Source: Sphyrna mokarran (lineage: Eukaryota). Taken from it: a DNA stretch of 64,000 nucleotides. Position numbers and translations under genes: made by a program. Under the pieces are notes generated by a model. That model was not told the origin of the DNA. It searched no databases and was given only the letters and a program-made list of their open reading frames with translations. The DNA lies in contig JAGIQG010000003.1 in assembly GCA_024679065.1 (NCBI GenBank), forward strand, positions 54,746,001 to 54,810,000, given 5' to 3'. Shown one piece after another: positions 20,884-47,158 of this stretch. Every line of letters begins with the position of its first letter. The first letter of the stretch is position 1.

Positions 20884-21089
20884 GGAGATGCCAGTGTTGG
20901 ACTGGGGTAAACACAGTAAGAAGTCTCACAATACCAGGTTAAAGTCCAACAAGTTTATTTGATAGTAGACCCATAAGCTTTCAGAACGCTGTTCCTTTGT
21001 CAGGTGAAGTAACAACATTCTGAAAGCTTGTGGGTTTACCATCAAATAAACTTGTTGGACTTTAACCCAGTGTTGTGAGACTTTTTACG
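20884..21089. mobile_element. Penelope-derived foldback element with a degenerate hammerhead motif
   Basis: Inverted arms gtaagaagtctcacaa...aagtccaacaagtttatttg / caaataaacttgttggacttt...gtgagactttttac. Minus strand CAC-CTGACAA-..-GAAA-GC-TT-ATG. A further single arm lies at about 21123-21210. Confidence 0.8.
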
Positions 21090-21960: not shown

Positions 21961-22375
21961 TTGACGGCAATAATCATTCAGCCTTCCCACGTCAGCATAG
22001 TAACTTTCAAAAGCGTGTAGACTAGAAAAGAGGGGAGAGGTGGGCACAGAAATCTTACATCCATCTTTTGCTATTGGAAGTGATAAATATGAAGCCTTAT
22101 TAAATATTAAGGAACAAGCAGTTAATTTGTAAATTTGCAGCTCAAGAGTTTATGAGCGAGAGATTGAACTACAGATGCATCAGGATTGGGGGTGGGGGAG
22201 GGGGGGTTGGAATGGGATTATCTGGATTATTTGTACCAGGAGGCAGTTACATTTTTCAGGATAAGGTCTTCTGATTTGGTCAGTGGTTAGGAATAAGAAG
22301 TGTGGCTTACAATGCGAGTAAGGTAGCTGGATTCTGAGGGCAGGATCCTCAGCCTTTTCAATTGTCACAGTAAAT

Positions 22376-22587
22376 AGTCTCACAACACCAGGTTAAATTC
22401 CAACGGGTTTATCTGGTAGCACCAGCTTTTGGAGTGTCGCTCCTTCTTCAGGAGAGTTTCCACTCACCTGATGATGAAGCAGTGTTCCGAAAACTCGTGC
22501 TACCAGATAAACCTGTTGGACTTGAACCTGGTGCTGTGAGACTACTTACTATGTTCACCCCAATCCAACGCCAGCTACTTCACATCA
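22376..22587. mobile_element. Foldback element with hammerhead motifs on both arms
   Basis: Plus strand CAC-CTGATGA-TGAAGCAGTGTTCC-GAAA-AC-TC-GTG (22465-22499). Minus arm CTGAAGA-AGGAG..CTCC-AAAA. Confidence 0.8.
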
Positions 22588-25905: not shown

Positions 25906-26617
25906 TAAAAGTCGTGGAAATGTGGAAATGCGTGCTTGTATTGTCAAAACATAACACAAATGTTTTCAGTGAGATAAATTACGTACAATATAATGCTGAA
26001 ATCCAGGCACAAATCGCTGCATAATTTGGATTTCCTGGAATGAATCCCTATCACACTCCGCTCCAAAGTATTACCAGTCGACCACAAAGAGGATTGAGAA
26101 CTTACTATGTGTGTCATGCGAAAATGAGTTCTCAAATACCCAAAGCTGACTTTATTTTCAACATTTCACAAATTCTCACAATAAACATGGTTGATCATAC
26201 CCTTCGTTAGTAGAACATAATTCTCACTCTGGTGTTCACTTAAATAAATCCAGTGGATGACGCGAAACTGAAATTAAATGTTAGGCGTGGTAAAGGTAAA
26301 TGGAATTCGTTTTTTAAAGGTGCAGATTAAAGTTTTATCGGTGGAAAAGGAGCTTTGGAAACAAGACTCATTCTTTTTTATGTGTTTATCACTTCTGTTA
26401 AATAATAACATTTTCACAGCAGCTGATGAACGTAAAGACTCTGAAGATATTAAAACCTGGAATTCGCAGTCATGACACTATTAGGTCCAATTAAACTGTT
26501 GTGTTCCCCACACTCCAATAGCGAACTCATGTCACAATTTCCTAAGATTTTTTTTTAAATGAAGTAACTACAGTTAGAACTGGGGGCGGCGTGGCTAATG
26601 ACTGACATATCAAGGAT

Positions 26618-26836
26618 TCAGTAAGAATTTAGCAACACCAATTTTTAATCCAACCGATTTATTTGATAGTAAAAATTTCAACACTGTGACTGAGACTGCA
26701 TTTGCCGGAGGAAGACACAGAGTGTTGAAAGCTCGCAATTTTACTATCAAATAAATCGGTTGGATTAAAAATTGGTGTTGCTAAATTCTTACTGAGTTCT
26801 TACCACCCCAATCCAACGCCGGCATCTTTACATCAT
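26618..26836 (+). mobile_element. Foldback element with perfect 57-bp arms, a hammerhead variant and a TSD
   Basis: 26618-26674 is the exact reverse complement of 26739-26795. CATATCAAGGAT occurs at 26606-26617 and 26834-26845. Confidence 0.9.
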
Positions 26837-28515: not shown

Positions 28516-29120
28516 TAAATTGCAAAGTTTCCACTCATTGCAGATTTGACTCTTGTTCTTTGTCACTCAAATTAGGTTTTTTGGGAACCTGTACAAAATT
28601 CCAACTAATTGTTTGACAGTTCGTAGTGAAATGTCAAAACGTTTTGCTTCAGAATGATTTAAGCAGTATTAACTGTCAAAAGCCAAATACTTCATTTGTT
28701 GATTTGTTCACTATTCAGTGTGAACTTGCTGAAGGTGCTGAACTTGCATTACACTTGGCATCCTTGCTTTGAGTCTGCAGTTGCAGTTGGATGTATCAAG
28801 TGGCACATTTCAGTAAGGGTATCTCTGATGTACTGCCCCTCACTGAGGTTCACCAACTCAACAAAATGTCATCAGTTTTCAATGAAAGTCAGTGAGCACA
28901 TATAGTTGCTATTTTGGAGTCAAAATGGCACTCATAGTGCCACAAAACATGAGTGAAGAAAGCAAAGTATGTGTCGAAAGTTGTGTGAATGACACCTCAT
29001 CCTTGTCAATCGACCTGAGCTCAGGATTTGCAACCTATGGCAGTTACTCAGACAAAAATCTCCTCAATGAGCCTACTTGCGGAGAAAATGCTTTGGGTAC
29101 AATTGATCGCCATGTTTCTG

Positions 29121-29121
<1 letters not shown>

Positions 29122-29155
<34 letters not shown>
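29122..29155 (+). repeat. (TG)17 microsatellite
   Basis: Direct observation. Confidence 0.95.
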
Positions 29156-29156
<1 letters not shown>

Positions 29157-29749
29157 ACCTTGATGCTGGTGCTATTATGATTTTAAAGGAGCTCACTGAG
29201 ACCCCAAGAGCAGAATGCACTTCATTCCTGCTTGCCAGAGAGAATTAGATAGTGTGAACATGAATGAGGTTTGTTGGCTCGTATACACGTCAGAAACATG
29301 CAGGAATTACAGGATGTAATTGACTGCTCACTTCATTTTGTGTACATCAGTTGTCAACTGTGAGGTGAACCACAGCCAAAAGGTTGCTCAGATGCAGAAA
29401 ACCAGTGCAGGTCACTGTCTGATATCCTGGCAGCAGTCATGGCTACTGACATTCATCACTATAAAACTGGGATGTGTGTGATAAATAGTGGTTCAGATGC
29501 TTTTTATTTAGTAGATATATTTTTGATACATGACAGATCGAAGTTCACATTGTGCCTTCGAGTTTAATGTTTGCACGCAAAATGGGAATTTTGATGTTGG
29601 CTTATGGTTTGAGTGATGGGATAGGGCGGCATTCAGCGATGGGGCAGTGTGGGTCTGGGTAAGATGCTGAGTTGGTGTACACTCAATGAATCAAATAGCC
29701 TCCTTCTATGTCTTGATAAATATTTCCCCCCACGCTCTGAGCCAGCTTC

Positions 29750-30077: not shown

Positions 30078-31020
30078 ACAGTGTTTAAGATGAGGTGCGC
30101 TCTCTTTGAACAGTGTTTAAGATGAGGTGCGCTCTCTTTGAACAGTGTTTAAGATGAGGTGTTGTGCTTTGAGCATTGTTTAAGATGAGGTGTGGGTCTT
30201 TGAGCAGTGTTTAAGATGAGGTGTGATTTTTGAGCAGTGTTTAAGATGAGGTGCGCTCTCTTTGAACAGTGTTTAAGATGAGGTGTCGTGCTTTGAACAG
30301 TGTTTAAAATGAGTTGTGGTGTTTTGAGCAGTGTTTTAGATGAGGTGTGGTGTTTTGAGCAGTGTTTAAGATGAGGTGAGGGGCTTTGAGCAGTGTTCAA
30401 GAGGAGGTGTGGCCTCTTTGAGCAGTGTTTAAGATGATGTGCAGTGTTTTGAGCAGTGTTCAAGATGGTATTTCATTCTTTGAGCAGTATTCAAGATGAT
30501 GTGTGATGCTTTGAACAGTGTTTAAGATGAGGTGCTGGGCTTTGAACAGCGTTGAAGATGAAGTGTAGTGTTTTGAGCAGTGTTTAAGATGAGGTGTGGT
30601 GCTTTGAGCAGTGTTTAAAATGAGGTGTGGTGTTTTGAGCAGTGTTTTAGTTGAGGTTGGTGCTTTGAGCCTTCTTTAAAATGAGGAGCGATGTTTTGAG
30701 GGGTTTTTGAGATGAGGTCCTGCACTTTCAGCAGTGTTTAAAATGAAGTGTGATGCTTTGAGCAGTGATTAATATGAGGTGTGGTATTTTGAGCAGTGGT
30801 TAAGATGCAGTGAAATATTTTGAACAATGGTTAAGGTGAGATGAGATGCTTTGAACAGTGTTTAAGATGAGATGAGATGCTTTGAACAGTGTTTAAGATG
30901 AGGTGTGATGCTTTGAGCAGTGTTTAAGATGAAGTGCAATGTTCTGAGCAGTGTTTAAGATGAGGTATTTTGCTTTGAGCTGTGTTTTAGATCAGGTGTG
31001 GTGCTTTGAGCAGTGTTTAA
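30078..31020 (+). repeat. 31-bp tandem satellite, about 30 units (consensus TTTGAGCAGTGTTTAAGATGAGGTGTGGTGC)
   Basis: Direct 31-nt periodicity, e.g. 30301 and 30332. An inverted unit lies at about 30035-30072. Confidence 0.95.
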
Positions 31021-32500
31021 AATGGGCTGACAAGTGGCAAGTAATACTCATGTCACACAAAATACCAGGCAATGATCATCACCAATAAGAGATGCTGTAA
31101 TCACCGCCCCTTGACATTTTGGCTGAGTAACAGCAAAATAGACTTTTATTTAAATGGTAAAAAATTGCAGCATGATATTGTGCAGAAGGACCTAGGTATG
31201 CAGGAATTTCAAGGAGTTAGTTTGGGGATGCAGCCGGTAATTATGAAGGCAAATGGAATTTTGTCCTTCATTCCCAGAGGGATGGAGTTTAAAAACAGTG
31301 AGGTTATGTTGTAGATACATAAGGTGCTGGTGAGGCCACACCTGGAGTTCTATGTACAGTTTTGGTCTCCTTACTTGAGAAAGGATATGCTGGTACTGGA
31401 GAGGACACAGAGAAGATTCACTCAGTAGATTTTGGAGTTAGAGAGTTGGCTTATAAGAGAGACTGAGTAGATTGGGGTTAGACTCATTGGAATTCAGAAG
31501 AATGAGAGGAAATCTTATAAACATATAAAATTATGAAGGGAATAGATAAGATAGAAGAGGGAGGTTGTTTCCACTGGTGTGTGAAACTAGAACTAAGGGG
31601 TATAGCGTCAAAATAATGGGAAGCAGATTTAGGACTGAGTTGAAGAGGAACTTCTTCACACAAAGGATTGTGAATCTGTGTAAATCCTTGCCCAGTGAAG
31701 CATTGAGGTTACCTCATTGAATGTTTTTAAGGTAAGAATAGATACCTTATTCTTACCTTAAGGTTTTTGAAGATAAAGGAATTAAAAGTTATGGTGAGCG
31801 GGCAGATAAGTGGAGCTGAGTCCCACTTAGATCAGCCATGATCTTATTGAATGGTGGAGCAGGCTTGAGGACCAGATAACCTACTCCTGCTCCTAGTTCT
31901 TATGTTCTTATATTGACATCCAATGTTGTAACAATCACTGAATCCCCCGCTGTCAACATCCTTTGGGTTACCACTGACCAGAAACTCAAATAGACTCACC
32001 ACGTAAAGATAATGGTTACAAGAGCAGATTAGAAGCTGGAAATACTGTGGGGAGTAACTGACCTCCTGACTCGCCGGAGCCCTTCCATCATCTACAAGGT
32101 ATAGATCAGGAGTGTGGTGGAATAAATGAGCGCAGCTCCAACAACACTCAAGAAGCCTGACACCATCCAGGACAAAGCAGCTCACTTGATTGGCACCATA
32201 TCTGCAAACATTGACATTCAGTAGCAGCAGTGTTTATTATCTTTAAGATACACTGTAGCAGTTCACCAAAGATCCTTAGACAGCATCTACCAATGCAGAA
32301 GGACACAACAGCAGATAAATGAGAACACTACCACTTGCAAGTTCCCCTCCAAGCCACTCACCATCCTGAGTTGGAAATATATCCCCGTTCCTTTGCAATC
32401 ACTAGGTCAAAATCCTAGAATTCCATGGCATTGTGATTCCACCCACTGCACATGGACTGCAGGGGTTCAAGAAGGTAGCTCACCACCACCTTGACAAGAG
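31021..32500 (+). mobile_element. 5'-truncated LINE (CR1/L2 group); its 3' tail continues at 44760-44831
   Basis: RT C-terminal remnant WADKWQVILMSHK, interrupted by a CR1 copy at 31118-31912. Tail ...ctcaccaccacc resumes after the provirus as aaggcaactag...gaataaataataaaa. Confidence 0.75.
31118..31912 (+). mobile_element. CR1 LINE 3' fragment nested in a LINE
   Basis: KANGILSFI, LVRPHLE motifs and a tcttatgttctta tail. Flanked by TTGACAT direct repeats (31111-31117 and 31913-31919). Confidence 0.85.
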
Positions 32501-33299
32501 TGTTGCTGTGCCTGTCGCACAGTTTGTTTTAACCTTTAAACGGTGGACAAAGAATTGTGAATAGACTTTATATTAATGCAACAATATTTATTTACACACA
32601 ATTATTAATCACCCACCCAATCAACAATAAGTTATATAGAATATCAAAGGTCAATTCCAATACTAGATCTTGACTTAACTTTTGCGTGATTGGCCAGTAC
32701 CCTAGCAGATATTGGCCTTTGCCTGTGAGCTGGTCTCTGTAGTTCTCTGTGCAGTCTGGTCCTTTGGTCTAGTCTGGTACTTTGGCTTTGGTCTTCCTTC
32801 CTTTTTGGCCAGGGTGGCTCTCTTTGTGCTAATCATTGCTGGCGGTGATCACCATTGTTGTCATTTGGTCAGGAAGAGAGTGAGAGAGATTCTTGCATTG
32901 AACAGCATCCATTATACCTCGTTGGTTTTCGTGTCCTTTTGACCATTGCCAATCAATCAATCAGGACTCAATCATCCTGATTGATAGAGTCCAATCAGGT
33001 ACTGCCACACTGATCTCAGGATTGTACCCCACAGCCATGCCTATAAGTGCTGGAGACGAATAGGTCACATATCTTCCTTCCAGATAAGGGGTTAAGGTGC
33101 CCCTATGTCAGTTAAACAAGCCAGTTTGACCGGAAAATATTTTTTGCCCTAGAGATTCTGTACATTCCAGCTCTTGCAGCTGTAGCCTGTTTGTCTCTGT
33201 CCAATTTATTTTGAGGCTTCAGTCTATCTGTTTCAGCACTTGTCCAATTATCCCAGCATGTCTTGCAAACCACCATTTTTGGTGACCCATTTGGCCACA
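32501..33299 (-). repeat. 3' LTR of the provirus
   Basis: tgttgctgtgcctgtcgcacag...tttggccaca. Minus-strand AATAAA at 32587-32592. Preceded on the minus strand by purine-rich AGGAGGAAC (33300-33308). Confidence 0.9.
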
Positions 33300-33599
33300 G
33301 TTCCTCCTGAACCCGAAGCATGATGGATTACAGACTCAGGATCAATACCTGTCTGGAATTCCCCAGGCACTCAACAGTCAGGTAAGGCCCAGGCATTGGC
33401 ATGCAAAGTAACAACACATTCCTACAACACATTTACAATTCAGAAGCTACAGACAGCAACATTCTACAGATACAAACAACCGCATATTCTAAAATACCAT
33501 CATTGCAACAAGCCAATTACAAACAAAATGTTCAAAGAAATATTACAATATTCACAAATCCATTTTGATATTAGGATTTCTAATCATCCATCGTGCAAA

Positions 33600-35560
33600 T
33601 AGCAATCCAGCAGGTTTCTTATAAACATTGCTGAACTGAATTAGGGGGGACTGTGATTTGAGGGTGAACCCTATGTCCTGCCTCTGGATGATCCTCTTTT
33701 TCCATCAGCTGAATTGGACTATGAGGATGATTTGATATACCAGGATGAACAAAATTAGTAATACTGCCATGTGTGATATTAAAGAATGAATAGATTTGGA
33801 TGTTTGAACCCCAGTTCCAAAGATCATTCCATTATGAGGTGGCCTTAACGTCTTTAATTTTCCTTTTCACTTTTTGGGTCTGCTTTATTACTTCGGTGAA
33901 GGTTTAGTGAAGGGTTGTAGCCAATTTAATCTGAATCTCCTCCAGTAGGGGTTTTAGGTTTGTGCCATATTTTTCATGGTACTCTTTGGCAGTGGTGTTT
34001 AAATCTACCCTTCCCTTTTGTGAATGTCTATTAGCTGAATGAGACCCACTCTGGCTGGTATGTCTGGTTTGATGCAGAATGTAGTGTTTGTAATGTCACA
34101 CTGTGTCACGAAATACATATTGTTTCAAGGAGGTAATGACAATATTTCCCTGCTCCTTTGTAAGCCATTGAGTTATATCTGTGTCCAGGTAATGAGTTTC
34201 CACTGAGCAATTTAGGCTATGTTTGTTCTGGAGCCACAGATGCTCATTTATGTAAACTGGGTATGGGCATGCAATTATTCATCAGTTTGCTGATATCTGT
34301 CCAGAGTAGTGCCTAAGAGTCTCCCTTCTTTCTCCATTGCGTACAGTAAAGTGCCATCTCATCCTATCCAGATATCCTCATGAGTAGTCCCTATATTTTC
34401 CATTTCAAAGACCCTCAGTCTGACCCGGTCATCAGTGATTATGGAGAGCCATAATATCATTCCCAGGGCTTTCCCTGGAGTCCCTTTGCAGTCGTCATTG
34501 AACCAGACTTTGGTTAACTGTCACATCTGACAGCCAGATAACTTGGGTTGTTTCTTATCCATAAATAAATAGTTCCACCTGTTCATCACTAATCCACGAT
34601 TAGTGACCACTGCTTATCTGCTCTAGGTTTTTTCCTTAGCTGCTCTATCATCCATATGCACTACATAAAGTGTGTTGTCAGTCATCATCCTCCAATTTTT
34701 CCCTAATAATTTGATTGAATGTTTTGGTGTGTTGTTTTAACACAGTGACCATGTAGCTGCCGGCTGCGTTTCCAGTCAATTCACCTTCAGCATCTTCCTG
34801 ATCATTCTCATTAATGTAATTTAGTGTCTGTTTAACCTGTTGGATCCTCAGGATCCTCAGTTTATTGCCCAGGTCGGCTAAATCAAGGGTGTTGATGGTT
34901 GCTACCTCTACCCTGTATGCTGTGGCCATGTTGTTAACTAATACTCCCTCGGATTTTTCCTATCTTTCATCCATTCCTATCTTTCATCCTAGCAGTTTGT
35001 GAATCAGGTGGCGGTATAATCTCTTAAGTTGGGGAGAGCACCATTCTGGCAGTTAGATCCCAGCTATATTCACCACCACAGGTACCAATTCATGGTGGAT
35101 GTTGTCTTATAGGGTTTTCCTTGTGTGCTTTAGTTTAGTGGTCCATGGGTAGCTTCAGGACAAATAGAGTGGGATGGTTTTGGAGTTGGCTTCTGCCTAT
35201 TTCTTATTTCATACAAATCAAAATATTCCTCTATGAGTGTTCCAGGGAACTGCTGCCTGAGCTCTAACCCTTTTTCTGGACTATTAGCCAGACATCCAAT
35301 TGCAAGGCATCCATTATTTGAAAATCTCCACCAATCCCCTGCTATGGTGACACTCAGATCACATTCAGTAGAACTGCCATTTGGTTTTTGTATATCAGCC
35401 GCTGGTTGTTGCACCCAAACATTATATTTTTATCATGATGCACACATAATGCACCATCCTCACATTCCCCCATGTCAGATGGGGCAAACCATAAATAGTT
35501 GGGATACAAAAAGTTCATCTTGTTTGGGCTGCCCTGCACGCTTATCCTGATATAAGTCCG
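33600..35560 (-). pseudogene. env-like fusion glycoprotein remnant
   Basis: HELVPVVVNIAGI*LPEWC near 35100. Fusion-peptide/heptad-like MATAYRVEVATINTLDLADLGNKLRILRIQQVKQTL at 34678-34929. A Cys-containing ectodomain (CDITNTTFCIKP) and WNDLWNWG precede a TM helix ISHMAVLLILFILVYQIILIVQF (~33710-33779) and a basic tail WKKR. Confidence 0.7.
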
Positions 35561-36017
35561 ATCAGGTAGATCCTAAGTTACATCATTTGTCGTTGTCCGT
35601 CGTTGTCCTGAGGAAATCAATGTAATTTTTGCTGTTATCGCATCTAATATTTGATGTATATACATGTATTACTACCCTTGCACCCCCTACCCCGTATTTT
35701 AAAACTATCGACAGTGTCACTTGTGTTTGTTGTTTTTTTCCTCCAATTGTGAATCACTGCCAAGCAAACGTTTGTTCAGACCAATAAATGTACAAGCTGT
35801 AGAGTGGTCGGAAAAGAGCTTATTTAAACTGGCCAACAAAATCAAGGCAGCCTGTTTTGCTTTAGCAGCAGTCACCATTGACCGTTGGGATTCAAATAGC
35901 ATTGGATTTGTTCAGTCATCACCCAAAGAGCTTAGTATCGGTACATCCTATGGGACATGGGTTAGATAAGGTGTCCATTCCATGAGTGTCTTGGGATTCA
36001 AAGGCAGAATTCTATAA

Positions 36018-36105
36018 ATTTAAAATGTAGCACAGTCACCGCAATGATTTTAAAATTTAGCACAGTTGCCTCGATGATTTTAAAATTTAGTATTGTTGCC
36101 TTGAA
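36018..36105 (+). repeat. 30-bp imperfect tandem repeat x3 inside the provirus
   Basis: tttaaaatgtagcacagtcaccgcaatgat / tttaaaatttagcacagttgcctcgatgat / tttaaaatttagtattgttgcc. Confidence 0.85.
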
Positions 36106-36388
36106 GTTCTGTGTTAATTGACGAAAGTTGGCCAAAGATCATGGTGTTGAACTATGTAGATAACCCAGTTAATTGTCTTAGCATTATACAGACGACATGG
36201 GAATGATTTGGTTTCATTTAACTGTGGACGTTTTAATGTCAGTCGGTCACAGTGAACCTGCAGGTTGAGAGATTCTGAGAGGGTGTTTCTGTCAGAGATT
36301 CTTGTATCTTGCATTGGTCTGCATTGTAGGCTGAATTTCATCATTCGGAACATCTTAGATTTTATCATTCAGCACTTTTGTTAACAAA

Positions 36389-38287
36389 TTGCCCGACAGA
36401 ATGTGCTTTGAAGAGTATAGGAGGTGTCGGATTAGAGTTAAGAGAAAAATCAGGAGGGCAAAAAGAGGATACAAGATTGTCTTGGCTGATAAAGCAAAGG
36501 AGAATCCAAAGAGCATCTACAAATACATAAATGCCAAAAGAGTAACTAGGGAGAGATCACGGCCTCTTATGGATCAACAAGATCATCTATGTGCAGATCC
36601 ACAAGAGATTGTTGACATCCTAAATGAATATTTCTCATTGATATTTAGTGTTGAGAAAAGCATGGATATTATGGAACTTGGTGAAGTAAATAAGGATGTC
36701 TTGAGGAGTGTTATAGAGAAGGAGGTGCTGGAAGTCTTAAAGCGCATCAAGGTAGATAAATCTGCAGGACCTGATGAAATGTATCCCAGGACATTGTGAA
36801 AGACTAGGGAGGAAATTGCGGGAGCCCTGGCAGAGATATTTGAATCATTGTTATTCTCAGGTGAGGTGCCTGAAGATTGGAGGGTGGCAAATGTTGTGCC
36901 TTTGTTTAAAAAAGGTTGCAAGGAAAAACCTGGGAACTACAGGCCAGTGAGCCTCAGATCTGTGATGGGTAAATTGTTGGAAGATATTTTGAGAGGCAGG
37001 ATCCACAGCATTTAGAGATGCAAGGACTGATTATGGACAGTCAGCATGGCTTTATGAGTGAAAAATCATGTCTCACAAATTTGATTGAATTTTTTGAAGG
37101 GGTAACTAAAAAGGTAGATGAAAGTAGTGCTGTTGATGTTGTCTACAAGGACTTTAGCGATGCCTTTGACAAGGCACCGTATGGTAGATTGTTGCATAAG
37201 ATTAAATCTCACGGATCCAGGGTGAGGTAGCCAAATGGATACAAAATTGGCTTGACACAGAAGTCAGAAGGTGATTGTAGGAGATCTGTGACCAGTAGTG
37301 TGCCTCAGGGATCAGTGCTGGATCCACTGTTATTTGTCATTTATATTAATAATTTGGATGAGAATACAGGAAGCATGGTTAGTAAGTTTGCAGATGACAC
37401 CAAAATTGAAGGTATAATGGAGAGTGAAGAAGGTTATCTCATATTGCAACAGGATCTCGATCAATTGGGCTAGTGGGCTGATGAATGGTAAACGGTGTCT
37501 AATTTAGATAAATACAAGGTGATGCATTTTGGTGGATCGAACCAGGGCAGGACTTACTCAGTTAATGTTAGGGATTTGGGGAGAGTTATAGAACAAAGAT
37601 CTAGAGATTCAGGTTCATTGCTCCTTGAAATTGGAGTCACAGATGGACAGAATGGTGAAGGTGTTCAGCATGCTTGGTTTCATTGGTCAGAACATCGAAT
37701 ACAGGAGTTGGGACATCTCGCTGAAGTTGTACAAGACATTGATAAGGCCACACTTAGAATACTGTGTCTGGTTCTGGTCACCCTATTATAGAAAGTATGA
37801 TATTAAACTAGAAAGAATGCAGAAGATATTTATTAGGATGCTACCAGACTTGATGGTTTGAATTATAAGAGAGGCTGGACAGACTGGGACTTTTTTCTCT
37901 GGAGTGTAGAAGATTGAGGGGTGATCTTATAGAAGTCTATAAAATAATGATGAACATAGATCAACTAGATAGTCAATATTTTTTTCTCAATTGTAGAGGA
38001 GTCCAGAACTAGAGGGTATAGATTTAAGATAAGAGAGGAGAGATTTTAAAGTCTCCAGAGGGGCAATTATTTCATGGAGAGAGTGGTGAATGTCTGGAAC
38101 AAGCTGCCAAAGCTGGATACAATTTTGTCTTTTAAGAAGCATTTAGACAGTTACATGGGTAATATGGATATAGAGGGATATGTGTCAACTGTGGGCAATT
38201 GGGATTAGCTAGGAGTTGAAAAAAAGTGTGGCATGGACAAGTTGGGCTGAAGGGCCTGTTTCCATGCTGTACTCCTCTATGACTCTA
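36389..38287 (+). mobile_element. CR1 LINE ORF2 3' fragment inside the provirus
   Basis: KSAGPDEMYPR, QHGF, SCLTNLIEFF, DFSDAFDK, VPQGSVL, KFADDTK and LIRPHLEYC motifs; ctctatgactct tail. Confidence 0.95.
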
Positions 38288-38478
38288 ACAGAGACTCTCC
38301 TTTAAATCATTTGTCTCATGGGGCATCATTACATCCTCTCCTGGCTTCTGTCACCTGTGTCTGTTCATTGGACTGCACTGTTGAGTTTGGTTCTGGGTTC
38401 GAGGGTCCTTTCTCCTCATCTCCTATTCTAATCAATCTATGTGTCTGGCCTCTTACCCAGGTGGGGGAATCGGCATCA

Positions 38479-39247
38479 TAAGAATATAAGAACATAAGAA
38501 ATAGGAGCAGGAATAAGCCATCTGGCCCCTCGAGCCTGTTCCGTCATTCAATAAGATGGTGACAGATCTTTTTGTGGACTCAGCTTCACTTACCTGCCCA
38601 TTCACCATAACCCTTAATTCCTTTACTGTTCAAAAATGTATCTACCTTTCCTTAAAAACATTGATTAGATAGCCTCAACTGCTTCACTGGGCAGGAATTC
38701 CACAGATTCACAACCCTTTGTGTGAAAAAGTTCCTCCTCAACTCAGTCTGCTCCCCCTTATTTTGAGGCTAAAAACCCTAGTTTTAGTTTCACCCGCTAG
38801 TGGAAACAACTTCCCTGCTTCTATCTTATCTATTCTCTTCGTAGTCTTATAAGATTGCCCCTCATTCTTCTGAATTTCAATGAGTATAGCCGCAGTCTAC
38901 TCAGTTTGCCCTCTCAACTCTGGAACCAGCCATGTGAATCTCTCTGCACCCCTTCCAGTGCCAGTATATCCTTTCTCAAGTAAGAAGACCAAAACTGCAT
39001 ACAGTACTCCAGCTGTGGCCTCACCAACACCTTATACAGCTCCAACATAATCTCACTGTTTTTAAACTGCATTACTCTAGCAATGAAGGACAAAACTCCA
39101 TTTGTCTTCTTAGTTACCTGCTACACCTGCAAACGAACTCCTTGAGATTCCTGCACAAGGACACCCAGGCAGCTCTGCACAGCAGCATGCTGCAATTTTT
39201 TACCATTTAAATAATAATCCATTTTGCTGTTATTCCTACCAAAATGG
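38479..39247 (-). mobile_element. CR1 LINE 3' fragment inside the provirus
   Basis: taagaacataagaa tail; the reverse strand resembles the 31118-31912 family. Confidence 0.85.
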
Positions 39248-39496
39248 TTGATTTGGTAGGGCTTCTTCAGGTGTACTCATCAAAATATCCCGGTGTTGTT
39301 TAGTCAGGGCCTCATTGTTTGTTCTGAGGCTAGTAAGGCTTATGTTTATGGGGGAATCCATAATGTTGTGAGGGCTGATATCTAGCAAGTCACCCCAATC
39401 CTCTAGTCATGTCCAGGTCGATCAGTACCCCTAGGGACAGTTCAGGTGTGGGGGAAGCTTTTGGCTGTATCGTGATAGAGGTAAGGGTCTGGTTTA

Positions 39497-39830
39497 AACA
39501 AAGAACAATACAGCACAGGAACAGGTCCTTCAGCCCTCCAGGCCTGCACCAATCATGTGTTCCTAACTAAACCATCCGTTTGTATACCTGTTTCCCAGTT
39601 TGTTCATGTAGCTATCTAGATAAGTCATAAATGATCCTAGCATGTCTGCCTCAACCACCTTGCTTGGCAGCGCATTCCAGGCCCCCACCACCCTCTGTGT
39701 AAAATACATCCCCTGCATATCTGTATTGAATCTTGTCCCCCCCCACACCCCCCCGCCGCCGACTTTACCTTGAACTTGTAACCCCTTGTGTTTGCCATTT
39801 CCAATGTGGGAAAAAGCTTCCAACTGAACC
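39497..39830 (-). mobile_element. CR1 LINE 3' end
   Basis: YFTQRVVGAWNALPSKVVEA motif and CR1 tail. Confidence 0.8.
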
Positions 39831-40262
39831 TGAAAGTAGATGAGAAGGTTTTCAGGGGAAATACGTTTCCTGGGTATTGCTTCTTATATGCTATACAGAC
39901 TAATGTACCACTCATAGAGAAGAAAATAAGCAAGTGCAGAAGTGTTATAGTCATAGCTAGGATGTAGAGAAGAATGAACTGAGTAAAGATAAATCCCTTC
40001 AAAAGTCTGACACAGCAGGGAAGCTGTTCTTGGTACATGACCTCAGACTTTGGTATCTTTTCCCAAAAAAAGGTGAAAGAGAGAATGTCCGGGGTGATGG
40101 GGTCTTTAATTATGCTGGCTACTTTGCTGAGGCAGCGGGGAATGTAGATAGTCAATGGATGGGAGACTGGTCTGTGTGATGGATTGGGCTACATTCACGA
40201 TCTTTTTTAGTTCCTCGTGGTCTTGGGTAGAGCAAGAGCCATATCAAGCTGTGACACAACCA
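39830..40262 (-). mobile_element. Rex1/Babar-like LINE 3' end
   Basis: CLSKVASIIKDP motif; same family as 18180-19060 and 44961-46072. Confidence 0.75.
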
Positions 40263-40264
40263 TG

Positions 40265-41800
40265 AAATACACAAGCAACTGTTGCTCGCACCCAGAATGT
40301 CTAATACTCATGAGGCGTAGGTTACTGGGCCTGGTCTACCATGTCGTTCCTGTAACAGTACTGCTGAAAGTGTGTGGAGGGTGGCTGCAACCTCTAAAGC
40401 GTATGGGGACTAGTAAGGCTGGCACTGTGATGAAGACACGCTTTAAATCAGTTACTGCAGCTCTGATCTGTGCAGTCCATTTCCAAGACGAGTTTTTCTT
40501 TAACAATTTAGACAGGGGGCCTGCTTTGGTGGCAAAGCCATCTATATGATTCCGACAGTACCATACTCGCCTTGGGAACGATCGGCAGCACTCATGTCTC
40601 AGGGCAGTGGAAGATGCGCTGTGGAGTCTATCCTTTTCTATTCGATCTCCCTCTTCCCATAGATAATCACTGTACCTAGGTATATGATCTTGAGTTGCAA
40701 AGTTTGGGCCTTTTTTGCTTTGACTTTGCAGCCTAATGAGTGGAGGAGTGTGAGCAATTCCTGTAACAATGTTACATGCTCCTCTCTGGTGTTAGTCTGT
40801 AACAATAAATCATTGACATATTGGACCAAGTGCTTAGGTCAGGAAAACTTTCCTAGTCTTGTAGCTTGTCGTCTATGGAGGATGGATGGGGAATTACGGA
40901 AACTCTATGGTAGGCAAGTCCAAGTGTATTGCTATCCCTGGAAGATGAAGATGAACTTGTACTGGTAGGACCGATTTAAAGGGATGGACCAGAAACCATT
41001 ACTGACATCCAGTCCAGTGAAAAACTTTGCCTGGGCTCCCTGTCTCACCATGGTGACAGGGCTTATAGCACTGTGGCGGCTATGAGTGGGGTAACCTTAT
41101 TTAATTCCTGTTAATCAATCATTAACCTCCATAATCTGCTTTCTTTATAAGCCACACTGGTGCATTGTTTATTGATGCCACTTGTTTCAACATTCCCTGT
41201 TATAACGGACTATCAATTACTTTGGCCACGTCACCCTCTGCCTGTCTGGGGAAACCATATTGTCTCTGAGGTTTCTGACCCTTCAATTAACACCTCCCCA
41301 CGTGCCTGGCCACAAGCATTCTTATGTTGCACAAACACCCCTTTGTCTCTTTGAAGCACCTTCCTAAAGGCTAGGTCGCTGCTAATCATTAAGGGATCAA
41401 GCCAGAATTCCCCTATAGTGTTAACCCTATTAGCATATATCCCGACTGGAATGATTGATGGCACTCTGCTAATCGTAGCCATCTGCCAAATGCATTGATT
41501 AGCTAGATCAAATGAACCATTTATTCATGTATCAGACTCAAGAATGTGTTTAGCATTTGGGGGAAGGTCAACTAACACCACAGGATGGTCATACACCTCG
41601 TTGCCTTGGCAGACCTGTACAGGGGCTGTAATCTGTCCTCCCTGCATGTGTCCTGTGAATCCACTGAATGTGTTTGTACCCGTAGTTGGCCAAAGGATGT
41701 CTGTCTTCAATTTTGATATATACAGGTATTTCAGGAACCTCCAGTATCTCAAAGAAATTCTAGGAGGTGGTCTCTTACCTCACTGTTAACTATGGATCTC
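40265..41800 (-). pseudogene. protease-reverse transcriptase (pol) remnant; RNase H and integrase not found
   Basis: EFL*DTGGS near 41735-41760 and HILESD (protease). FFTGLDVSNGFWSIPL, YTWTCLP*SFRNSP, LVQYVNDLLL (decayed YVDD), KIIYLG, IDGFATKAGPLSKLLKK and LEVAATLHTLSAVLLQERHG..PVTYAS (connection domain). Confidence 0.9.
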
Positions 41801-41899
41801 CCTACACTATCCTGCCTCGTGCTACAGACCCAGGCTGGGGAGGCTGAACATCATCAATATATAATCCCGTAGATGGGGATCATTGAACATAGTGGTGGG

Positions 41900-43640
41900 T
41901 GGGAACTCAAGGTATGCATGGGGTGACCGGGACCTTCTATCAGTGGTGGGCGGTGTTCTCTCTTGTATCTAGAAGCTGGCCTAACTGATGGAGATGGTGG
42001 TCCTGCTTGACTTGGGGACCGTTTATAGGGTGGTGGAGGCTCATACATTCTCGGGAGAAGTGTCCTGGCTGCTACAATTAAATTACAACTCCCTGAGGCT
42101 GCTGCGTAATGTACTTCTGTGGTGTTGGTGTTCCCCTCTACCCTCATTCCTTCATATTGGACTCTGGTCAGTCCTCATCGGAAGAATTCCAGCTTCCCAA
42201 TTTGACCATGATGTTGGGAGTCCCTGAACTTCCTGTTCCCAGACTCAAGCAAACCATCGGAGAACCCAGGCTTCATTATGTGTGGTCTCTGCGGGGTCAA
42301 AATTAATGCAGGCTTTCTTACCTTCCTCTGTGGTGTGTGACATTAATGTCCTAGCCCACTTAGATGAATCAGCCTCACCTAATCTAGCCCAATCTAATTC
42401 CCCATATACTCCCATGAAGTGGATCCATAAATGACCAACAAACACAGTCGGATGTTCTCCTTTCCTCTGTCTACATTTATTTAAGCCACCTCTATTAAAT
42501 CCTAGCCCGGTCAATGTTGCTTCCTTGAGCTCGCTCATGGCTCCTTCCCTGACATTTTAAAGGGTTGGCAGGGCTGTACCGAATTGCTTAAGCATATCAC
42601 TATTAACTTTACTTCTTCCCTTTCATCTAGCCCGTGCATTATCTTTTGCTGCCTAACCTCCTCAAAAAAATGTGTGGGTCAACCGATGGCTCAAAGGCTG
42701 GGATTTTATTTGCAATTTTGGCCAATTGTGCTGCTATAAGTGGGGTCATGTGTGTAAAAGCTGGGCCCTGAGCCACTCCTACCCAATGTTCAGTCATCAC
42801 TGGGTGCATCCATCATTTGTGAGCACAGTGGGTATGTGCCTCGGAAAAGATGGTGGTGGACCCCAATCCTCAATTGGTATAATGTACAGTTTAGCTTTTT
42901 TTTAACTCTCCCAACTTGCATTCTGCATCTCCTCTTCACGTACTGTTCCAAAGGTACACAAAAATCTGTTTTGCACCAATAATGGGGATTCCAGCTATGA
43001 AATTTCTCACTGGCATTTGGAGTGGTCAGTGGTTACCTGCCTCAGTTCTTTACTGGCTTGACGTAGCACTTTTATTGCTGCCTGCAGATCGGTGCACTTA
43101 ACTTCCAATTGTGTTACCAACCACTTGGCTTCACCTTTGGCCAAAATAGCGCATTGGGCATCTTGGTAGGCTGTCTCGTACTAGGTCTGAAAATTGCTCA
43201 GATGTAATAAATTTGCCTGATTTGTTCTTTTTAATTTGTCTACCTCTCTGTCGTTTTTGGCTTTTATTTGTTGTATCCTTTCCTGCTGCTGTTCCGTTAG
43301 TTTCTTAATCTCCTCTTCCTTTTCCTCTTTGAATTTTCTAATCTGTTCCTTCTTCTCCCCCTGCACCTGCTTTAATTCTTCCAATTCCTTACGAACTGTG
43401 TTTAATTCCTTTTCAGTTCCTAACAGCTGTCCTAAGCAATTCACAATGGCAGTCGCTTTCTCACTTTTGACTGCCCGTTTTCCCTAAACTTTCCTCAGAT
43501 TGTCCCAGCGCCACCTCAGTATTGGCACAAAATTCTGCCCATAGGGGCCACCCTTCCTTCTTAATATATTCCCTGATTTTTGTTTCCCTTATAGGACACC
43601 TCTCCCTCTCTGTAATGTTTCCTGCCATTCTATACTCAAT
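41900..43640 (-). pseudogene. gag remnant with N-terminal coiled coil and capsid MHR-like motif
   Basis: ORF 43181-43444 (EKELNTVRKELEELKQVQGEKKEQIRKFKEEKEEEIKKL..., heptad-rich). ORF 42245-42538 has KCRQRKGEHPTVFVGHLW, an MHR-like Q..GE.P..F motif. Pro-rich C-terminus. Many stops and frameshifts. Confidence 0.75.
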
Positions 43641-43995: not shown

Positions 43996-44010
43996 GTCCC
44001 AGAGTCGCCA
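43996..44010 (-). promoter_or_regulatory. Primer-binding site, probably tRNA-Arg(UCU)
   Basis: Minus strand TGGCGACTCTGGGAC lies 4 nt after the 5' LTR end. The first 11 nt are complementary to ...CAGAGUCGCCA, the 3' end I recall for vertebrate tRNA-Arg(UCU). Confidence 0.7.
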
Positions 44011-44014
44011 ATTA

Positions 44015-44759
44015 TGTTGCTGTCCCTGTGGCACAGTCTGTTTTAATCCTTATACGGTAGACAAAGAATTGCGACTAGACCTCGTGTTAATGCAACAATA
44101 CTTACTGACACATGATTAATAATCACCCATCCAATCAACAATAATATTTTTTAGAATATCAAAGTTCAAGTCCAATACTAGATCTTGACTTAACTTTTGC
44201 ATGACTAGCGAGTATCTCGGCAGAAAATGGCCTTTATTTGTATGCTGATCTCTGTAGTCGTTGTGTAGTCTGATCCTTTGATCTGGTTTGATAATCTGGC
44301 TCTGGTCTTCCTTCCTTCTTGAGTGAGGTGGCTCTCCTGTGTTAGTCATTGCTGGTGGTTGTCACCACTGTTGTCATTTGTTGGAGAGGAGGGAGAGAGA
44401 GATTCTTCCATTGAGCAGCTTCCTTTTGGCCATTGCCAATCTATCAATCAGGACTCAATCACCCTGATCGATAGGGTCCAATGGCCATGCCTGTAGGTGC
44501 TGGAGGCACTTGGTCAGATACCTCACTCCCAAATAAGGGGTTAAGGTGGTCCTTCTGTCTGGTAAATAACTCAGTTTGACCAAAAAGTGTTCTTTGTCTC
44601 AGAGATGGTCAATATCCTGTATATTCCAACTCTTGCAGCTGCAGTCTGTTCCTCTCTGACCAATTTCTCTTGAGACTGCAGCCTATCTGTTTCAGCGCTT
44701 CTCCAATTATTCCTCCATTCTTGTGCAAACCACCATGTTAGGTGGCCTGTTTGGCCACA
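44015..44759 (-). repeat. 5' LTR of the provirus
   Basis: Plus strand tgttgctgtccctgtggcacag...tttggccaca is colinear with 32501-33299. Followed on the minus strand by the PBS. Confidence 0.9.
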
Positions 44760-44831: not shown

Positions 44832-44960
44832 AAGATGAGGTGCGGTGCTTTGAGCATTGTTTAAGATGAGTTGTTATGGTTTGAGCAGTGGTTTAAGATG
44901 AGGTGTGATCCTTTGAGTATTGTTTAAAAAAGGTACATTGTGTTAAGCATGTTTAAGATG
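44832..44960 (+). repeat. Continuation of the 31-bp satellite
   Basis: aagatgaggtgcggtgctttgagcattgtttaagatgag... resumes the array in register. Confidence 0.9.
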
Positions 44961-46135: not shown

Positions 46136-46901
46136 TAAGTAGCTCTACTGCTTGGAATATGGCATTTGAAATTAAATTCATTGACTTTTGTTACGCTGCA
46201 TGCCTTGGGCCTTTTTTCCTGACATTGATTTCTACAACTATGTCTTCCTACAGTAATCTGGAATATTTCCTGATACCTCAATAATCTCGTCATTTTTCCT
46301 CTTCCACTTCCAATGCATCGTGTGCAGCCTCAGACTACCTTTAATATGTTCTGTGCTTTGTTGTACCATGATTTACACTTCCTGATGTTCAAACTCTCCT
46401 GCAATCCATTCCAGCACCTTTAAGAAATTCAGACTCACCTAATTAGAGCTAACCTGTCACAATCTTTGGTTCTCTGCTGAATGCAGTCACTCAGTAGTTT
46501 GTTTAGTGCTGGACTGCACTTAGCAAACAAGCAAATTGACACTAAGTTCATGTGCTATCTGCTCCAGAAGTAATAAACATTCACGATTTGCACTTCACGA
46601 TCCATTATCAAGGGCAATCAAACTCTTCAAACCCAAGTATGCCTTATTTGAATGGACACATGAGATGAATTTTATTGTCATATTGTAACTTGGCCTTAAA
46701 ACTCGGCAACCCATTCAGAAGTCCGCTGATCTCAACAGGACTGGAAAATCCCAACAGTGTCAATGAAAAAGTCAGTGGAGGCAGTAAACAATTTTGTGAG
46801 AAATCTAAAAACCATCTATATTCAATCCCTGTTTTCCATTTGTATTATTAGTTTCCATTACCATCACTAGCTCATATTGGCATTATTCGTCTAGTATGAC
46901 A

Positions 46902-47158
46902 TCTCACAACACCAGGTTAAAGTCCAACAAGTTTATTTGATGGTAAACCCACAAGCTTTTGGGGTTTGCCCCTTTGTCAGGTAGTGGAGAGTTCTGGTCT
47001 CAAAGAGCCGTTTGACCAGAACTCTCCACTCACCTGATGAAAGGGCAAATCCAGAAAGCTTGTGGGTTTACCATTAAATAAACTTGTTGGACTTTAACCT
47101 GGTGTTGTGAGACTTCTTACTGTGTTTACCCCAGTCCAACGTTGGCATCTACACATCA
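46902..47158 (+). mobile_element. Foldback element with arms of about 100 bp and an intact hammerhead core
   Basis: Arms 46902-46999 and 47014-47112. CAC-CTGATGA-AAGGGCAAATCCA-GAAA-GC-TT-GTG at 47031-47064. Confidence 0.9.

Follow-up and report, generated by a model that had tools for sequence, protein, structure and literature searches.

What kind of envelope protein did a broken env gene in a shark genome once encode, and what kind of element carried it? The gene lies on the minus strand of a 64,000-nt stretch of Sphyrna mokarran DNA (contig JAGIQG010000003.1, positions 54,746,001 to 54,810,000; hereafter the window), where an initial annotation had read it as an env remnant with a paramyxo/pneumovirus F-like layout rather than SU/TM. 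We found that it is part of a 12.3-kb minus-strand provirus, and we consider it probable that the locus is the broken env of an old, LTR-flanked endogenous retrovirus (ERV) of a shark, with a likely clade Huo polymerase and a likely F-type Env. Within this explanation the provirus layout, its decay, the homology to a shark Env family, the cleavage motif of the relatives and the lack of a CX6CC/ISD are direct observations. The parts of the provirus are listed below with the evidence for each.

44015..44759, minus strand: 5' LTR, starting TGT and ending ACA (local alignment with the 3' LTR)
43999..44010, minus strand: PBS-like 12-mer, 4 nt past the 5' LTR
41900..43628, minus strand: gag remnant (translations; heptad score)
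41240..41900, minus strand: likely protease and RT N-terminus remnant (assigned from position and translation)
40300..41240, minus strand: reverse transcriptase and start of the tether, broken (Pfam, PDB matches, motifs)
36350..40200, no strand assigned: host LINE/SINE-type repeat block between pol and env, about 3.9 kb (CR1-like ORF pieces, repeat families, depth)
35133..35429, minus strand: piece of the env N-terminal module with a terminal Pro/Thr hinge (43% to P0004 over 35306-35133)
34990..35132, minus strand: F2-like core strand and helix before the cleavage site (aligned to P0004, P0005 and P0011)
34957..34989, minus strand: 17-nt tandem duplication, 1.9 copies, just upstream of the degenerate cleavage region
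34573..34956, minus strand: fusion-peptide-like segment, heptad repeat A and subsequent helices (62% identity to Scyliorhinus torazame protein P0001)
34011..34571, minus strand: beta-rich, Cys-containing middle region in alternating frames (tblastn to P0002, P0003, P0008 and P0010; profile 73 bits)
33793..34005, minus strand: heptad repeat B and Trp-rich membrane-proximal segment (WNDLWNWG at 33831)
33708..33770, minus strand: transmembrane (TM) helix (translation, position)
32501..33299, minus strand: 3' LTR, starting TGT after a short purine-rich tract and ending ACA

All motifs that had been named for env sit on the minus strand, with VPVVVNIAG at about 35080, NMATAYRVEVATINTLDL beginning at 34935 and the hydrophobic TM run at 33770. 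The fusion peptide and heptad had been placed about 1.15 kb upstream of the TM helix, and the measured distance is 1165 nt, or about 388 codons; the Cys-containing region and the Trp-rich WNDLWNWG do lie downstream of the fusion peptide as described. Neither CX6CC, the immunosuppressive pattern LQxRxxLD nor R-x-K/R-R occurs in the three minus frames of 33500-36000, which bears out the reported absence of a CX6CC/immunosuppressive motif and of an intact furin site. The cleavage motif is degenerate in the window copy, while relatives have R-x-K/R-R at the aligned position. The disruptive tandem duplication noted near this area was confirmed, a 15-mer of its unit being found at 34958 and 34975. 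The fusion peptide is weakly hydrophobic (KD19 at most 0.43), and helices are predicted across the fusion-peptide and heptad A region in a low-confidence model of a relative. What did not survive was the description of the F2-like segment as short: env homology reaches upstream to at least 35306 in the alignment with P0004, and full-length relatives have about 250 residues ahead of the cleavage site. The module at 35133..35429 is a candidate receptor-binding part, and the middle region may be the equivalent of F domains I/II. The stretch 35430-36350 between the repeat block and env holds no recognised product, and a 30-bp unit is repeated 2.8 times at 36019-36101.

The env copy contains 13 stops in 465 aligned codons and alternates between two frames with at least six frame changes, and it is therefore dead: it cannot make an Env protein and has decayed like neutral DNA. 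Co-option of this copy is ruled out by the same stops and frame changes. Env sites are covered by up to 30-35 differing contigs when the contigs of one DNA run are aligned at 80% likeness, which indicates a putative multi-copy family, the depth itself giving no copy number.

We then turned to the relatives of this gene. Searching 1.84 billion proteins by phmmer with the main env frame returned nine matches, eight of them Env-like; the ninth, the bacterial repeat protein P0009, was dropped as spurious. All four Env-like matches with a species name come from sharks (Scyliorhinus, Mustelus, Heterodontus and Pristiophorus), as do all 24 species-named entries among the 26 proteins of a profile search. 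Full-length P0011 aligned collinearly with the window by tblastn (67+35 bits, E 4e-18; 100 shuffles reached at most 27.7 bits). A profile of 29 natural relatives, built from an alignment that included window rows, produced three collinear matches in the six-frame window, at 138, 73 and 40 bits, ahead of a runner-up at -0.5. The match to the relatives spans the F2-like strand to the TM-proximal region, with an identity of about 28% to P0011 and 62% to the Scyliorhinus fragment. Scans of viral contigs and metagenomes found no relatives, PHROGs gave 0/5 matches, and the main env frame matched none of 1415 candidates in a word-index protein search.

The relatives preserve what the window copy has lost. 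In all six chosen relatives, R-x-K/R-R is followed by G/D-I-I/V-x-D, so that a basic cleavage site directly precedes an N-terminal fusion peptide and heptad A, as is typical of F-type proteins; none of the six has a CX6CC or ISD. In the full-length P0011, about 400 residues separate the end of the cleavage site, at 252, from a TM that begins near 656. Several relatives (P0011, P0034, P0036-P0038) are uninterrupted ORFs of 699-722 residues, annotated only as 'uncharacterized' where they come from Mustelus asterias, which suggests a young or conserved subfamily. Natural members of the family include XP_078074422 and XP_067879622. The fusion core is common to the window subfamily and to P0011 and the Mustelus-type proteins, whereas their N-terminal heads have no detectable likeness except for the Pro/Thr hinge. 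The single PDB match of the module at 35133..35429 was a Fab heavy chain (E 0.31), and a nanobody matched an off-frame env stretch at E 1.5 in the PDB sequence search; an Ig-like head had no usable match in ESM Atlas and none in Pfam. We treat the Ig-like nature of the head as a lead.

Because of its anatomy, the ESM Atlas neighbours of a relative and a by-eye motif collinearity with lokiretrovirus Env, we regard it as highly probable that this Env is an F-type (class Ib) fusion protein. Besides the cleavage site and fusion peptide, it has the long beta- and Cys-rich region followed by heptad B and TM that belongs to such proteins. Class Ib fusogens are membrane-fusing trimers in which domains I-III are nested. 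For residues 160-520 of the relative P0005, ESM Atlas returned Baculo_F/Gypsy env clusters at 0.93-0.95 and Fusion_gly at 0.92, with 193-209 of 256 features in common. The top neighbours were baculovirus F and errantivirus Env, with paramyxovirus F0 at rank 10, and 'F-type' therefore fits better than 'paramyxo/pneumovirus'. The F-like layout proposed in the initial annotation is supported by anatomy, relatives and Atlas, its paramyxo/pneumovirus label less well. In an unscored comparison by eye, motifs of the relatives and the window follow the same order as in the published Loki-Xtr Env: NSI past the fusion peptide, G-x-I/V-P past heptad A, LLxIP, an N-x-G strand, the cysteine spacing, and W-x-WG ahead of the TM.

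The checks against Pfam Fusion_gly and by AlphaFold and Foldseek that had been proposed for this locus gave a mixed outcome. The F families PF00523, PF12259 and PF07253 had no match in the six window frames, the nine first matches or ten further relatives. Fold and Atlas comparisons used relatives about 28% identical to the window, and their AlphaFold models were of low confidence (pLDDT 44.9 and 38.2), with TM-scores to F proteins of about 0.1 and weak F-type fold matches. With one model, Foldseek against the PDB placed foamy Env, hMPV F and RSV F at ranks 2-4, 12 and 14 (E 0.18-0.66), behind the unrelated Vps75 at rank 1. The BFVD list was headed by a torovirus spike (E 1.5e-5), with a fish paramyxovirus F0 at rank 8 (E 2.3e-3) and chuvirus-type glycoproteins and WDSV Env at E < 1e-3. 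The second model gave a torovirus spike and feline foamy Env at ranks 4-5, and unrelated proteins were mixed into the top Foldseek rows. VIA-align on both low-confidence models listed generic helical bundles and no F proteins, a result that says nothing about the fold. Env queries against the PDB, by sequence and by profile, found no fusion proteins, only chance matches. A match to gp41, named beforehand as one that would speak against an F protein, appeared only as GP41 at E 0.064 in heptad B of one of the ten further relatives, and this was the best retroviral Pfam match.

The other retroviral envelope classes fit less well. Gamma-type Env is defined by a CX6CC directly after the ISD (PMC3758190), an arrangement found in none of the three window frames and none of the six relatives. 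A beta-type (gp41-like) Env has a short ectodomain with two heptads around one CX4-7C loop, and here we found some 390-400 residues and several cysteines. On the reading of these sequences, an F-type layout rather than a gamma- or beta-type SU-TM is supported, not proven. Alternatively, the Env could be some other long class I envelope, such as an epsilonretrovirus-like one, whose likeness to F comes only from shared helices and a long ectodomain. The missing Pfam F match, the weak fold matches and the third-ranked BFVD match, WDSV Env (E 3.4e-4, prob 0.21), point that way, but the Atlas neighbours are F-type families at 0.92-0.95, the motif order agrees with Loki Env through the beta/Cys region, and the relatives measure about 700 aa against 1159 for WDSV Env. 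We consider this explanation improbable.

The likely F-type Env sits in a recognisable, if damaged, provirus. The LTR pair has 82.7% identity over 729 aligned nt in a local alignment (K2P 0.20). A rate of 2.2e-9 substitutions/site/year turns this into about 46 My, one of 1e-9 into 100 My, and the 2.2e-10 assumed in PMC4422223 into 457 My. Given this spread of 46-457 My, the age of the provirus can therefore be stated only as 'old'. The PBS-like 12-mer is presumably a tRNA-Arg primer site; a literature search for its motif returned unrelated papers only. The gag remnant has an N-terminal coiled coil at 43181-43483, by heptad score, and in translation a zinc-knuckle remnant near 42070 that is split over frames. 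Its Pfam search gave nothing beyond weak coiled-coil-type matches, and the protease and RT N-terminus region had no Pfam match. RNase H and integrase were not found at the locus by Pfam, nor in PDB searches of 35430-36359. The ORF pieces inside the repeat block we take to be of a CR1-like family. A reading as a Mononegavirales EVE was ruled out by the LTR/gag/pol context. Other repeats also occur in the window: a 31-bp satellite of 30.5 copies lies at 30079-31024, with a 3-copy outlier at 44832-44927 just outside the 5' LTR, and long inverted repeats with short spacers, MITE-like and several of them from one dispersed family, lie at 20916-21088, 22366-22553, 26612-26801 and 46893-47121. A 120-aa stop-free frame on the plus strand at 28886-29248, starting MALIVPQN, is possibly a host exon.

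The paired TGT/ACA LTRs, the PBS-like site and the gag-pro-RT-env order support the provirus reading, while the LINE block between pol and env and 5-nt flanks that agree at just 3/5 positions count against it. The locus might then be a chimera, in which an env half and a gag-pol half are two insertions joined at the LINE block, and the class of the polymerase would say nothing about env. Such a chimera could account for the 3.9-kb block, the missing RNase H and integrase, LTRs that are 17% apart and the poorly agreeing flanks. However, the LTRs that flank the two halves belong to one family and have identical termini, the parts are correctly ordered and oriented, and contig depth over env (330-830) is comparable to that over gag-pol (350-1160), against about 1e5 over the repeat block. 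We therefore favour a single provirus and hold two joined insertions to be slightly less probable than another class I envelope.

From its motifs, the polymerase of this provirus likely belongs to the snakehead-retrovirus (SnRV) group (clade Huo, class III). The RT matched Pfam RVT_1 at E 3.1e-16 and RT_RNaseH_2 at E 0.13, and its best PDB matches were to foamy virus Pol (E 6e-17). To our knowledge, the PDB holds no SnRV-like RT to compete with foamy Pol. The motifs LNKVTP, DVSNGFWSIP, QYTW, LP..F.NSP and QYV(N)D fit SnRV and, closely, the elephant-shark CmiERV-I in a comparison by eye, for which the CmiERV-I codons were also read by eye. SnRV uses an Arg tRNA primer. The gag coiled coil and zinc finger, the knuckle being split across frames, are an SnRV-like trait, seen also in SnRV Gag with its coiled coil and one zinc finger (PMC2717909), and the LTR termini agree with the TGT...ACA of class III ERVs (PMC8278194).

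It is very unlikely that the element belongs to the lokiretroviruses, of which it would be the first member from a cartilaginous fish. Lokiretroviruses have a dual RNase H and a CGIN1-related integrase, and at this locus neither RNase H nor integrase was found. The motif order of its Env is like that of Loki-Xtr Env and its coiled-coil ORF recalls the Loki smc gene; however, all 24 Loki RTs examined have PFG and lack a Q before (Y/F)VDD, whereas the window RT lacks the PFG pattern and agrees with SnRV and CmiERV-I, its coiled coil is at the gag N-terminus as in SnRV, and none of the six chondrichthyan genomes in Wang and Han's table is positive (PMC7947760). A foamy-like ERV, from a group with an established F-like Env, is suggested by the foamy Pol matches and the weak foamy Env matches but has an equally slight chance, since foamy ERVs have no Cys-His box in Gag and carry a GGGTG PPT-LTR junction (PMC5210030), and the window has a gag zinc-knuckle remnant, no such junction and QYV(N)D rather than xVYVDD, with relatives of about 700 aa against 981 for feline foamy Env.

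Taking the clade Huo provirus with an F-type Env as the working explanation, the ancestral Env would have been a type I membrane precursor of about 700 residues that trimerised. Furin would have cut it into an N-terminal subunit, comprising the variable head, the Pro/Thr hinge and the F2-like core, and an F1-like subunit with some 400 ectodomain residues. As we saw no separate attachment gene, receptor binding probably fell to the N-terminal head of Env itself. Cleavage would free the N-terminal fusion peptide, and receptor binding would then lead heptad A to extend and the fusion peptide to insert into the target membrane, after which heptad B may fold back to form a six-helix bundle. This scheme is drawn from foamy Env and F biology (PMC11468914).

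Several known systems resemble the shark family in part. Lokiretrovirus Env, which is similar to PF00523 (Wang and Han, PMC7947760), is likewise an ERV env product with an R-x-K-R site, fusion peptide, coiled coil and long ectodomain, alike in motif order by eye. The part ahead of the cleavage site measures about 115 residues in Loki-Xtr Env and roughly 250 in the shark family, whose fusion peptide is shorter and more polar than the longer apolar one of Loki-Xtr Env; in RT, lokiretroviruses form a sister lineage that has different motifs, and they are unreported in cartilaginous fish in the accessible text of that study (PMC7947760). CmiERV-I and SnRV of clade Huo have similar RT and tether motifs, and CmiERV-I a chondrichthyan host (PMC4422223, PMC6001957), but CmiERV-I has a different PBS (PMC4422223) and a gamma-type env, with LQNRMALD (ISD) followed by CX6CC in codons read by eye on CmiERV scaffold 2 (PMC4422223 supplement 1). 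Foamy virus Env is a retroviral Env with a class Ib F core, but its RBD is inserted inside SU and it has two membrane segments, whereas the extra module of the shark family is N-terminal (PMC11468914); the gag and RT of the window are not foamy-type. The top Atlas neighbours, baculovirus F and errantivirus Env (PF12259, PF07253), also have a furin site and then a fusion peptide (PMC13524379), yet they occur in DNA viruses and invertebrate Ty3/gypsy elements, and the window has no match to their Pfam families. Paramyxo- and pneumovirus F0 (PF00523) is similar in F1-like length, order of parts, Atlas score (0.92) and weak Foldseek matches, but has no detectable sequence match, and the shark Env has an extra N-terminal module and sits in a provirus.

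F-like retroviral Env has been published for lokiretroviruses (PMC7947760) and foamy viruses (PMC11468914), and SnRV-like ERVs have been described in chondrichthyans (PMC4422223, PMC6001957). We found no paper that pairs an F-type Env with a clade Huo polymerase in the mostly non-subscription literature, including the accessible text of PMC12440569, PMC13524379, PMC12583693, PMC11521997, PMC11089739, PMC8278194, PMC13709493, PMC9040795, PMC3758190 and PMC5210030. With a gamma-type env in CmiERV-I and an F-like env in the window on a similar RT, similar chondrichthyan polymerases carry two envelope classes. Four scenarios for the origin of retroviral Env remained open after the study of Wang and Han (PMC7947760), and foamy Env was later shown to be F-like (PMC11468914). 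We suggest, very tentatively, that F-type Env may be the ancestral retroviral envelope, that the shark clade Huo family may keep a homologue of Loki Env within canonical Retroviridae, with an exchangeable N-terminal, possibly Ig-like, receptor-binding head, and that sister ERVs such as CmiERV-I may have swapped to a gamma-type Env.

The window locus is a poor, badly decayed representative, and the value of the finding lies in the shark Env family. If our explanation is true, this family would constitute a third retroviral lineage with an F-type Env, widening the set of retroviruses that use such an entry protein. An SnRV-like polymerase with an F-type Env, next to a gamma-type Env in a published shark relative, would amount to an exchange of envelope class inside one retroviral clade, and the 'ancestral F' scenario would become testable by comparing Env with RT trees.
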